This document shows, one piece after another, positions 1-4,566 of a DNA stretch of 5,018 bases. Position numbers and translations under genes: made by a program. The notes beneath the pieces are model-generated. The model made no database searches, was not told the origin of the DNA, and worked only from the letters and a program-made list of their open reading frames with translations. This DNA is from a virus. Taxonomy: Duplodnaviria > Heunggongvirae > Uroviricota > Caudoviricetes. The stretch lies in IMG/VR virus record IMGVR_UViG_641736116_000018. One strand, 5' to 3'. Within the stretch, counting starts at the first letter, position 1. The number at the start of each line of letters is the position of its first letter.

Positions 1-119
1 CTTGAACAGCAGGAAGGTTTTATCGTTGACGGCGTGGCCTGGAAAGTCCGTATTGATGCAGGTGTGGCAGCTCTGGATTATCGCGGTATGGTCAAATCAG
101 GCGGGACAGATTCACTCTG
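1..119 (+). CDS. 3' end of an unidentified protein-coding gene (partial; start lies upstream of the window)
   Basis: Frame 1 is open from position 1 to a TGA at 117-119 (…GFIVDGVAWKVRIDAGVAALDYRGMVKSGGTDSL*) and is followed 6 nt later by an intrinsic terminator. No open frame on the minus strand. The track ORF 2..214 is in another frame and reads through the terminator hairpin. Product not recognised. Confidence 0.3.
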
Positions 120-124
120 ACAAC

Positions 125-148
125 AAGGCGGCACCAGCCGCCTTTTTT
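125..148 (+). terminator. Rho-independent terminator (stem AAGGCGGC / GCCGCCTT, loop ACCA, then T6)
   Basis: Seen directly: aaggcggc-acca-gccgcctttttt immediately downstream of the frame-1 stop codon. Confidence 0.6.
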
Positions 149-375
149 GCGGTCCTCCAGGTGGGGTGGGCTGAACACGGGGCGGGCGGCGCGGAAAAAA
201 ACGCATTTTTTTGATTTTATCGTCATCATCATCATGTTTGTAAGTGATTGTTTTTAATTGCTTTGATGTAAAAAAGATGATGAAGAAGGTTGTTTTTTGT
301 TCGACATCTTTTAGCGTGACAGATTCTTTACAAAAAATCTGAGCTTGTTTTCTTCACCAGCGCGATGGGGGCACA

Positions 376-657
376 ATGACAGAAGCCGAAATACTGGGAT
401 TAATCCGCCGCGTCGCCGGAATCAGCCAGCAGGTTGACGAACAGGCCACGCAGCCGGACAGCATGACCGCAGATAATTATGTGCGTGTAGTGGTGGAGGT
501 GATGCGCCGTGATGGTATCCAGCTTAATGATGTGGATATGCGCAATATACGAACCAGAGTCCTTGAGTTGCTGGCATACCGTCGCCGTTCTCAACAACGG
601 AGGGAGAGCGCGAAAAATACTTACCAGTGGAAGACGCCGGAACGGCTGCGGAGGTAA
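376..657 (+). CDS. Hypothetical small protein, 93 aa, basic Arg-rich C-terminus, function unknown
   Basis: ATG at 376 preceded by a G-rich stretch (GGGGG 367-371). Balanced charged/hydrophobic composition, unlike the overlapping antisense ORF 400..672. Several rare codons (ATA, AGA, AGG, CGA, GGA). No family recognised from sequence alone. Confidence 0.4.
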   Translation: MTEAEILGLIRRVAGISQQVDEQATQPDSMTADNYVRVVVEVMRRDGIQLNDVDMRNIRTRVLELLAYRRRSQQRRESAKNTYQWKTPERLRR

Positions 658-660
658 CTT

Positions 661-690
661 GTTGATATTCACGATAACGCAAAATTGCGT
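661..690. repeat. Composite repeat copy A: GTTGATATT (661-669) + dyad ACGCAAAATTGCGT (677-690)
   Basis: Exact 9-mer GTTGATATT and exact 10-mer core GCAAAATTGC, both recurring at 919-950 and (9-mer only) 963-971. Confidence 0.5.
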
Positions 691-702
691 TGGCTGGTGG
701 GG

Positions 703-722
703 GAGTTGCAGATCTGCAACTC
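703..722. repeat. Perfect 20-bp palindrome GAGTTGCAGATCTGCAACTC
   Basis: The sequence equals its own reverse complement over 20 bp; lies 46 bp downstream of the 93-aa ORF stop. Confidence 0.6.
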
Positions 723-894
723 GATCATGAAATTACGGAAACTACCCGTAGTTTGGGTAGTAAGAGCAACACCCAGATTTTGGGGCTTACTTGCGATACC
801 CAAATAAAGGGTATCGGTGGAAGAAATATCGTTTCTCATATGTGAGTACCGAGGGCGTAATTCCACCTTCGGTTACTCGCTGAACTTAAAGCAA

Positions 895-910
895 AGCGCA
901 AAATTGCGCT
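895..910. repeat. Dyad AGCGCAAAATTGCGCT (second copy of the GCAAAATTGC core, no adjacent GTTGATATT)
   Basis: Exact 10-mer core GCAAAATTGC at 898-907 with complementary flanks. Confidence 0.5.
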
Positions 911-918
911 GATAACTG

Positions 919-950
919 GTTGATATTGTTACAGAGTGCAAAATTGCACT
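919..950. repeat. Composite repeat copy B: GTTGATATT (919-927) + dyad AGTGCAAAATTGCACT (935-950)
   Basis: Same 9-mer and same 10-mer core as copy A, with the same ~18-19 bp offset between them. Confidence 0.5.
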
Positions 951-962
951 ATGGCCTAACCC

Positions 963-992
963 GTTGATATTTCCGGCAACCTCAATTTGAGG
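963..992. repeat. Composite repeat copy C (diverged): GTTGATATT (963-971) + dyad CCTCAATTTGAGG (980-992)
   Basis: Third exact GTTGATATT followed at the same offset by a different but analogous CAATTTG-centred dyad. Confidence 0.4.
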
Positions 993-1267
993 AGATCGGA
1001 AACATCACCCTTCAAATTCTGAATGGTCATAATGACCACGCAGACCATCAAGGCAACCACAACGAACATCGTTACGGTTGGAGCTTTTACCACACTGGGG
1101 AAAAGGTACGCACCTGAATCATCATTACCGTGATCAAGGGTATGTAAAGCCCACCAGCCTGATTAACGTTTAACCGGAAAAAAATTCCGGTAGGTGGGGA
1201 TCCCCATATCGGGGAACATCCACCAGCTTCATAACGGATAGCCGGAAAATGATAACGGTTAAAGCGT

Positions 1268-1332
1268 GTTGATCTTTGTTCGTGGTTGTTCGATATTGTT
1301 CGTGAAACGGTGTAGTTAATGGTGTAGTTAAT
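1268..1332. repeat. Iteron-like direct repeats: GTTGATCTT / GTTCGATATT variants, TTGTTCGTG x2 (1276-1284, 1296-1304), GGTGTAGTTAAT x2 in perfect tandem (1309-1320, 1321-1332)
   Basis: Seen directly; the 12-bp tandem is exact, and the 9-bp repeat recurs at a 20-bp period. Confidence 0.5.
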
Positions 1333-1403
1333 TTCGCTGTTTTTGACAGGGTTGTTATTTGTAACGCAATGAAAAATAAAGACTAATCAATGAAATGTTA
1401 TAA

Positions 1404-1421
1404 ATGATAGTTATCTATCAT
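1404..1421. promoter_or_regulatory. Perfect inverted repeat ATGATAG-TTAT-CTATCAT about 85 bp upstream of the clpS start; candidate operator
   Basis: 7-bp arms exactly reverse-complementary with a 4-bp spacer, in an AT-rich stretch of the clpS 5' region. Confidence 0.3.
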
Positions 1422-1505
1422 GTGGAGTAGATTGGTCAGGCAAATAAGCTCTTGTCAGCGGCAGGGCGTTCTGCCGATAACCGTAACCGAAGATGATAAC
1501 TGACA

Positions 1506-4347: not shown

Positions 4348-4435
4348 GTTCACTGCCGTACAGGCAGCTTAGAAATTCACTGGTAACATACTCCACCCGC
4401 CCACCATGTTCACTGCCGTACAGGCAGATAAAATG
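4348..4435 (+). CRISPR. Orphan type I-F-style CRISPR mini-array: repeat (4348-4375), 32-nt spacer (4376-4407), degenerate terminal repeat (4408-4435)
   Basis: Repeat 1 GTTCACTGCCGTACAGGCAGCTTAGAAA is the canonical 28-nt I-F (Yersinia-subtype) repeat with the Cas6f hairpin GTTCACTGCCGTACAGGCAG and the CTTAGAAA handle. Repeat 2 keeps the first 20 nt and diverges over the last 8. The spacer is exactly 32 nt, the I-F length. No cas gene in the window. Confidence 0.8.
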
Positions 4436-4437
4436 CG

Positions 4438-4465
4438 AAAAAAAAGCCCGTACTTTCGTACGAGC
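4438..4465 (-). terminator. serW Rho-independent terminator (8-bp stem, GAAA tetraloop, U8 on the minus strand)
   Basis: Minus-strand RNA GCUCGUAC-GAAA-GUACGGGC-UUUUUUUU, 13 nt downstream of the tRNA 3' end. Confidence 0.7.
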
Positions 4466-4478
4466 TCTTCTTTAAATA

Positions 4479-4566
4479 TGGCGGTGAGGGGGGGATTCGA
4501 ACCCCCGATACGTTGCCGTATACACACTTTCCAGGCGTGCTCCTTCAGCCACTCGGACACCTCACC
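4479..4566 (-). tRNA. serW: tRNA-Ser, anticodon GGA, 88 nt with encoded CCA
   Basis: Reverse complement reads GGTGAGGTGTCCGAGTGGCTGAAGGAGCACGCCTGGAAAGTGTGTATACGGCAACGTATCGGGGGTTCGAATCCCCCCCTCACCGCCA: GGA anticodon loop, long variable arm, GGTTCGAATCC T-arm. Confidence 0.95.

Follow-up and report, generated by a model that had tools for sequence, protein, structure and literature searches.

The gene-poor stretch before clpS as the likely right-hand end of a phage satellite carrying an uncharacterised hairpin array

Why should a conserved chromosomal gene, clpS, be preceded by some 1.4 kb of DNA that is almost free of genes? The question is posed by a stretch of 5,018 nucleotides filed as viral (IMG/VR record IMGVR_UViG_641736116_000018), hereafter the window, in which positions 120–1505 lead up to clpS where the Escherichia coli K-12 map would place cspD. 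A first-pass annotation took the segment for an accessory or replaced piece of DNA at a hotspot. The window up to position 1414 is very probably the right-hand end of a Gram-negative phage-inducible chromosomal island (PICI), a satellite of lambdoid phages, and this is the best explanation of the region as a whole. Except for one hairpin-rich non-coding stretch, which is uncharacterised, the island is a typical representative of a known class of mobile element. Its new points are modest: a variant packaging module of Shiga toxin (Stx) phage type, a precise map of cos and attR, and a widespread array of hairpin units tied to an orphan gene. Genome annotators gain a defined element, with a cos site, an attR arm and a core, in place of a puzzling stretch of DNA beside clpS that seemed poor in genes.

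Window positions 1–1505 are 99.8% identical to E. coli O145:H28 strains RM12581 and RM13514 (99.6% over the whole window), and comparing the junctions in K-12, RM12581 and the window distinguishes insertion from replacement. Coordinates on the RM12581 and K-12 loci are prefixed L001 and L002, respectively. The K-12 order is cspD (−), yljB (+), clpS (+), with a cspD–clpS spacing of 322 bp; the expectation that cspD lies directly before clpS was essentially right, save for the small gene yljB between them. The K-12 junction, CGATAG-ATGATAGTTAT-CTATCATGTGG, holds a single copy of the core, overlapping the stop codon of yljB, and K-12 has none of window 1–1403 at this locus. RM12581 reads macB, cspD (−), yljB, 11 kb of inserted genes, clpS. 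At its left junction it follows K-12 through ATGATAGTTAT and diverges beyond; at the right junction the window is divergent to 1403 and K-12-like from ATGATAGTTAT (1404–1414) on. An 11.1-kb element has thus entered the chromosome at this 11-bp core, and nothing was replaced. The accessory segment at a hotspot stands, and the idea of replacement falls, as cspD and yljB are intact 11 kb away in RM12581. The core lies at L002 3812–3822 in K-12, attL regenerates the 24-codon yljB, and just 91 bp of native sequence are left upstream of clpS. The features at this junction are as follows.

1266–1403: satellite-side arm of attR, with TGTTCG three times (1275–1301) and GGTGTAGTTAAT twice (1309–1332)
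1404–1414: att core ATGATAGTTAT, attR copy; second copy at attL (L001 10281–10291); equal to the published core of PICIs between cspD and clpS
1415–1505, + strand: native chromosomal sequence before clpS, identical to K-12 and present in 5425 of 5426 genomes

The insertion site is one already used by satellites: Table S1 of Fillol-Salom et al. 2018 (PMC6092414) places the PICIs EcCIIHE3034 and EcCI18098 at cspD–clpS with the core ATGATAGTTAT. This island–clpS junction is found in 366 of 5426 complete E. coli genomes (~7%), and the full 1–1505 combination in just 5 of them. The arm-repeat block recurs inside attL in the same orientation (window 1276–1334 versus L001 10385–10443, 78%), four islands at this site have one and the same attR arm despite their differing interiors, and the island integrase has an Arm-DNA-bind_3 domain (Pfam). 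The repeat block 1275–1332 looks like a set of arm-type integrase sites, matching that domain. The string CGGTGTAGTTAATGGTGTAGTTAATT (window 1308–1333), an arm-type repeat here, also figures in Table S1, where it is called the ‘att site core’ of EcCIDI14 (within an IS110 transposase gene); what is listed there may be an arm repeat and not the crossover core.

A hidden or degraded cspD was considered and ruled out: tblastn with CspD over the whole window returned just a 9-residue match (E=1.7), in line with the earlier remark that cold-shock coding is absent. That no minus-strand open reading frame (ORF) of cspD size exists is true in part, as ORFs of 90 aa (400–672) and 65 aa (669–866) are present and neither resembles anything; the former is antisense to a real gene, described below, for a 93-aa protein. 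This gene is indeed rich in rare codons, AGG/AGA/CGA/CGG/ATA/CTA making up 9.7% versus 0.9% in clpA and 3.8% in clpS. GC content, which was to be compared as well, is not discriminating (45.6% in 120–1403 versus 45.2% in clpS and 52.6% in clpA). Also borne out was the lack of a convincing ORF in 658–1505, where no ORF has a family match. Four ORFs of 40–65 aa within 669–1093 have no PHROG match, nor was one found in assessing the coding potential of 658–1100.

What, then, was inserted? The RM12581 island encodes an integrase, a hypothetical protein, an AlpA-type regulator, a YlcI/YnfO gene, an Icd-like gene, small ORFs, a DUF4222 protein, a primase, an SSB pseudogene, a ClpP-protease/capsid fusion and the 93-aa gene. 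Pfam finds Phage_integrase with an arm-binding domain, Phage_AlpA, DUF4222, a D5_N/Pox_D5 primase, and CLP_protease with Phage_capsid_4 among its proteins. The type III secretion regulator RgdR belongs to DUF4222 (PMC3378721). The element has the marks of a Gram-negative PICI as defined by Fillol-Salom et al. 2018: 11.1 kb between the ATGATAGTTAT copies, within the range of ~8–15 kb, with direct att repeats at a PICI-specific site; an integrase, AlpA and primase in a mostly rightward arrangement, with YlcI/YnfO as the sole annotated minus-strand gene; no tail genes, lysis genes or full structural set; and a packaging signal, the region 149–343 being homologous to the cos of helper-type phages. 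No tail, lysis, portal or terminase gene appears in the annotation of L001 10465–20659, where the ORFs of 16500–18300 were also examined. The window holds the packaging end of this island.

1–120, + strand: 3′ end of the fusion of a ClpP-like prohead protease and the major capsid protein (RefSeq annotation of the 99.8%-identical RM12581 locus; Pfam)
125–148, + strand: hairpin resembling an intrinsic terminator, AAGGCGGC-ACCA-GCCGCCTT plus a T-run (fold −17.2 kcal/mol, z=−3.9)
149–343, + strand: putative cos packaging site, homologous to an unannotated stretch upstream of terS in Shiga-toxin phages
151–156, + strand: cosQ-like GGTCCT
177–194, + strand: cosN-like ACG-GGGCGGGCGGCGCGG
195–343, + strand: cosB-like part with inverted R-like repeats TCATCATCATCATG (223–236) and GATGATGAAGA (277–287)

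The gene tail with its terminator had been recognised correctly (stop codon TGA at 118–120, hairpin and T-run at 125–148), and a hairpin plus T-run stands at the same place in other cos copies too. When window 120–1420 was searched against 50,697 phage records, matches were confined to the cos part, with identities of 82–85% to VT1-Sakai and eight Stx2 phages and 77–80% to Fels-1 and mEp460. Of the 16 records that matched, the majority are without annotation at this place and two show a hypothetical protein. VT1-Sakai, Fels-1 and Stx2_95, the three phages whose context was inspected, have the match between the lysis genes and terS, ending 37–42 nt before terS, the position that cos occupies in lambda; in mEp460 it lies at the record end and is ~106 nt short. 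The layout is that of a lambda-type cos site, with cosQ, cosN (GGGCGG...CGCGG) and cosB in order and a phage homolog just upstream of terS. The cosQ–cosN spacing of 20 nt equals that of lambda, which reads GGGTCCT (cosQ), 20 nt and ACG-GGGCGGCGACCTCGCGG. Phage Stx2_95 has exactly this cosN string, the same variant recurs in 21 related satellite loci, and the exact lambda cosN is found in another 28. Downstream of cosN the phage-conserved inverted repeats TCATCATCATCATG and GATGATGA are kept, so the cosB part also looks helper-like.

A second cos-like copy lies upstream of the capsid gene in RM12581 (L001 17600–17714, genome positions 1005842–1005956; 78% identical to window 138–250), so that the capsid fusion is flanked by two direct cos copies. 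The second copy keeps the cosQ and cosN motifs, and its cosB repeats are degenerate; EcCIIHE3034 has an equivalent copy (L095 6702–6890). The protease/capsid protein is 51.7% identical in aa sequence, over 99% of its length, to the Stx2_95 homolog. The homology of both cos and the protease/capsid gene to Stx-phage sequences could also be read as the residue of a decayed lambdoid prophage beside clpS, a cos site and a head gene with no satellite involved, and relatives of OI-51 type have long been annotated as cryptic prophages (PMC3378721). We consider such a remnant very improbable. A remnant would not account for a whole element of 11.1 kb with clean att repeats and a P4-type int–alpA–primase backbone common to the PICI EcCIIHE3034, nor for the same architecture recurring at several att sites; and a capsid gene merely 52% identical to the phage homolog next to a cos at ~85% fits a long-separate satellite lineage.

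Returning to a PICI, its helper-like cosB and the lack of an Rpp gene mean that it probably uses unmodified helper terminase, and it would be packaged by the terminase of helpers of the VT1-Sakai/Stx2_95 type. On the explanation that we favour, a tyrosine integrase inserted the island at ATGATAGTTAT, pushing cspD and yljB 11 kb from clpS. By analogy with EcCICFT073 and SaPIbov5, induction of a helper prophage of VT1-Sakai/Stx2_95 head type would lead the island to excise and to replicate from its own primase and origin, and the helper terminase would then cut and package island concatemers at cos 149–343. The diverged protease/capsid gene would be the likeliest source of interference or small capsids. 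Some observations pull the other way: the presumed cos function of 149–343, terminase cleavage included, is read from homology; compared with RM12581 and the phages, the window copy lacks 1 nt between cosQ and cosN; and the island ssb is a pseudogene in RM12581.

Between the cos site and the hairpins lies a single conserved gene.

376–657, + strand: conserved PICI gene for a 93-aa protein, c1505-like (phrog_1561, E=5e-56)

It corresponds in size (93 aa) and position to c1505 of EcCICFT073 and closes the series of conserved genes in PICIs at several att sites, irrespective of their packaging module. Its 842 homologs, all ‘hypothetical’, are of near-constant length. The N-terminal half of the protein is acidic and its C-terminal helix is rich in arginine; the isoelectric point is 10.4 overall and 11.6 for residues 51–93, and an AlphaFold2 model shows three helices (pLDDT 68). 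A Foldseek search of the model against the PDB gave nothing below E=1. The family is narrow: an exhaustive profile search of 1.84 billion representatives gave just 46 clusters, all short and none informative. Two identities were tried and rejected. The protein is not RgdR, which is the 99-aa DUF4222 gene c1493/ECs1581, and it is neither Rpp nor a truncated TerS, to which it has no similarity; no PDB sequence match to Rpp was found.

What lies between this gene and attR? The palindrome-dense stretch pointed out in the first-pass annotation is real: 658–1265 holds 17 hairpin seeds (perfect stem of at least 6 bp), compared with 0.9 ± 1.1 (maximum 6) in 200 shuffles. Their density is 28 per kb, versus 2.3 per kb in clpS–clpA, and the RNA folding energy of 650–1270 is −225 kcal/mol versus −167 ± 7 for shuffles (z=−8.0). 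The stretch is composed of repeated units, two modules of other hairpins and a conserved block.

655–697, + strand: unit U1, box TAACTTGTTGATATT from the ORF stop codon, hairpin AACGCA-AAAT-TGCGTT (repeat search, nhmmer, fold z=−3.2)
698–869, + strand: hairpin module A, six consecutive hairpins
870–912, 913–956 and 957–1003, + strand: units U2, U3 and U4, tandem copies, each a box plus a variable hairpin
1004–1162, + strand: hairpin module B, TGGTCAT-A-ATGACCA, CAACC..ACGA-ACA-TCGT..GGTTG and others
1163–1265, + strand: conserved block beside the att arm, ACCGGAA-AAAAA-TTCCGGT and a nested hairpin GGTGGGGATCCCC...

Module A contains a perfect 20-bp palindrome (703–722) and TACCC-N7-GGGTA palindromes at 743–759 and 797–813, and 698–820 is found in other PICIs at 92–93% identity in a different order. 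The 17-bp palindromes TACC(C/G)-N7-(C/G)GGTA number three in all (743–759, 797–813, 1126–1142), and module B begins in three loci (L039, L048, L071) with a related hairpin, GATACCC-N7-GGGTATC, in place of a different one. In the alignment of module B, whole hairpins are exchanged for others at the same position, and one-sided changes are nearly all G·U-compatible on the + strand. The block 1163–1265 is near-invariant in four elements at this att site, with parts of it in PICIs elsewhere. Covariance models of Rfam 15 run on 120–1510 gave nothing near gathering score (best E 0.64, an unrelated plant-virus pseudoknot), and a search at permissive thresholds found no family. A literature search on small RNAs in CP-933C and on EcCIIHE3034 in main texts likewise found nothing.

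The units are the most regular part of the array. Each spans ~43 nt, with a box TAACnnGYTGAWMTT followed by a hairpin, and the window holds four. A count across 93 loci gave 106 copies, of which 45 are distinct, at 1–4 units per island; every copy lies on the + strand, 0–363 nt after the 93-aa gene, and 39 start at the stop codon of that gene. The hairpin apex is near-constant, a C-A and a U-G enclosing a loop AAAU or AUU, and the stems occur in 16 versions, such as CCTCA/TGAGG, GCGCA/TGCGC, GCCCA/TGGGT and CAGCC/GGCTG. RNAalifold on a MAFFT alignment of the units found no structure, because the two classes of stem are offset by a single alignment column; stem pairing was measured instead by a loop-anchored count, in which stem pairs 2–6 are paired in 87.6% of cases versus at most 74.7% in 2000 arm shuffles. 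Of the 45 units, 31 have the better fold on the + strand as compared with the − strand (p=0.005), and wobble pairs favour the + strand. No unit was found elsewhere in the island upstream of the 93-aa gene. The candidate helper Stx2_95 gave three weak matches to the pattern and none to the unit profile, and among other species, in a collection of one genome per species, one locus alone, in Shigella flexneri, carries relatives.

Is such an array kept by selection at all? The interval 658–1162 holds cargo in relatives, perC and another gene in 2011C-4251 and a small minus-strand gene in IHE3034. Genes present here in relatives, a module order shuffled between elements, and the want of any Rfam or ORF family are what one would expect if 658–1265 were functionless debris, the scars of recombination and gene loss in a cargo region. 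We take this possibility seriously and yet judge it unlikely, for debris would not retain 17 hairpins where ~1 is expected, or pairing through stem changes. Moreover, the modules are 92–95% identical in other PICIs beside a coding gene at ~84% in the same loci, and parts of the hairpin region are present in 1273 of 5426 genomes.

If the array is functional, its letters could act as DNA or as RNA. The consensus for integration host factor (IHF) is YAANNNNTTGATW. Three copies of TAACnnGTTGATA fit it, IHF sites are typical of integrase arms, and the three 17-bp TACCC-N7-GGGTA palindromes resemble operators; 658–1265 might accordingly be a set of protein-binding sites, for example an extended recombination or regulatory region. 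We give this DNA-level explanation a low probability. In relatives the box often reads GCTGAACTT or GCTGATATT, neither of which fits the IHF consensus; compensatory changes in the stems under a constant apical CA-AAAT-TG are the mark of a folded strand, as opposed to an operator with two half-sites; the wobble pairs are biased towards one strand; and the modules are present in PICIs with unrelated integrases and att sites.

The compensatory stems and strand-biased wobble pairs point, with moderate confidence and from sequence comparison, to a folded + strand transcript in 658–1162 in place of protein-binding duplex sites. This interval is most likely transcribed rightward as a structured 3′ region after the 93-aa gene, its hairpins probably acting as RNA-level stops or stabilisers and its repeated units probably as recombination points that shuffle modules between co-resident PICIs. 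Several findings count against a reading at the level of RNA. Covariation in module B is weak, with a double change in 3 of 37 pairs; the reading draws on paralogous, non-independent units and few substitutions; and no promoter or T-tract terminator was found for the hairpin stretch on the + strand. As no + strand T-tract terminator was found anywhere in 658–1505, transcripts of the island could extend into clpS.

More than 1200 genomes contain the hairpin array and the orphan gene for the 93-aa protein. It is a speculative and rather improbable proposal that the arginine-rich protein and the units form an undescribed RNA–protein module of enterobacterial PICIs. Were it true, the 93-aa protein might act as N does at nut and bind the hairpins of the transcript that encodes it, controlling read-through into perC-like cargo or clpS; alternatively, the array might be a decoy for an RNA-binding factor of the helper phage.

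The remainder of the window is chromosomal. After the 3′ end of the capsid gene (1–120) and the study region it holds clpS (1506–1826), clpA, a two-repeat CRISPR remnant, tRNA-Ser and infA. The two CRISPR repeats (4348–4375 and 4408–4435; Rfam CRISPR-DR4, GTTCACTGCCGTACAGGCAG...) enclose one spacer between clpA and tRNA-Ser; the window contains no cas genes, and RM12581 carries the same two repeats. Beside tRNA-Ser, RM12581 has ~180 extra bases (L001 24430–24670) that are absent from the window (~4433–4497); these are a duplicate of the tRNA-gene flank and bear the RefSeq label ‘RtT sRNA’. The window thus derives from a near relative of RM12581 and not from RM12581 itself.

How does the island compare with known satellites? 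The published PICIs at its own site, EcCIIHE3034 and EcCI18098, share its att core, location and attR arm, at 10.5–10.8 kb versus 11.1 kb here. With EcCIIHE3034 it shares int (92%), alpA (98%), pri (90%) and the 93-aa gene (80% aa identity), and the Icd-like, DUF4222/RgdR and SSB genes are also common to both. The packaging modules differ: EcCIIHE3034 has a lambda-type module (E-like capsid, D-like decoration, and a TerS-like gene at the Rpp position), of which none is present here, and the present island, unlike EcCIIHE3034, has a ClpP-protease/capsid fusion between two cos copies of Stx-phage type.

EcCICFT073, the prototype of Gram-negative cos PICIs, has the same order of int, alpA, pri, packaging genes and 93-aa gene (c1505), and it shares the two cos sites (cos1, cos2), dependence on helper terminase and lambdoid helpers, features predicted from sequence for the present island. 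It differs in having the lambda cosN GGGCGGCGACCT, its own cosB, a need for Rpp to retarget TerS, and an att site at ycfD–phoQ, as opposed to cosN GGGCGGGCGGCG.., a helper-like cosB and no Rpp homolog in the present island. A tblastn search of the element with the EcCIIHE3034 TerS-like protein found no match, which sets the island apart from the Rpp-dependent cos PICIs. On paper it resembles the Staphylococcus aureus cos satellite SaPIbov5, which likewise carries the cos of its helper, no terS and a capsid homolog; as it lacks Rpp, it would work more like SaPIbov5 than like EcCICFT073. The capsid homolog of SaPIbov5, Ccm, makes small capsids (PMC6092414). The lineages, hosts and proteins are unrelated, and small capsids, described for SaPIbov5, are at most a prediction here.

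Capsid-forming PICIs (cf-PICIs) encode portal, head–tail connectors and TerS, and their packaging is of the pac type. The present island resembles them, for example EcCIEDL933, as a satellite with its own major capsid protein and prohead protease, and differs in having the protease/capsid fusion alone and a cos site. cf-PICIs are described as encoding all the proteins for building and filling their own capsids (10.1101/2022.09.08.507074). No portal, head–tail connector or TerS gene is annotated in our island or was found there as an ORF, so it does not belong among the cf-PICIs. Satellite P4 has in common with it a P4-type integrase, an AlpA/Vis-like regulator, an Icd-like gene, an alpha-like D5 primase, cos packaging and a size of ~11 kb. 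P4 uses a P2-type 19-nt cos. The island cos matches lambdoid phages of Stx/Fels-1 type, with the cosQ–cosN layout of lambda, and psu, delta and sid are not annotated here; the island is not P4-like in this sense.

A further arrangement is suggested by IMG/VR contigs L014–L028, in which window 120–868 recurs at 96–98% identity (locus ~2243–2993 onward). In the one contig examined, L014, a 373-aa ORF follows at ~3157, which by eye, without a search, we take to be part of a terminase large subunit. This arrangement would fit the ‘helper-embedded’ PICIs, which integrate inside prophage late genes (PMC10111431).

For the hairpin units, a parallel is offered by the lambda nut site (boxA, spacer and boxB hairpin) with its arginine-rich N protein. 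In layout the four units are similar, each having a conserved single-stranded box, a spacer of 6–10 nt and a hairpin of 5–7 bp with a conserved A-rich loop and variable stems, and they adjoin a gene for a small protein with an arginine-rich helix. The likeness is a resemblance only. Similarity in sequence to boxA, boxB or N is absent, the loop reads AAAU/AUU and not GAAAA, and the island sites lie downstream of their gene, with none found in Stx2_95.

The islands of O157:H7 PV15-279 (L008), E. coli 042 (L006) and IHE3034 (L095) share one att site and backbone and carry three packaging modules: terS plus capsid, the ClpP/capsid fusion, or a lambda-like capsid with decoration and a TerS-like gene. 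Judged by these sequences, the modular swap of packaging genes tracks helper head types among islands at the same site. Interchangeable modules that mirror lambdoid head types suggest dedicated satellites of Stx-type phages, and in pathogenic E. coli such satellites could affect the yield of toxin phages.

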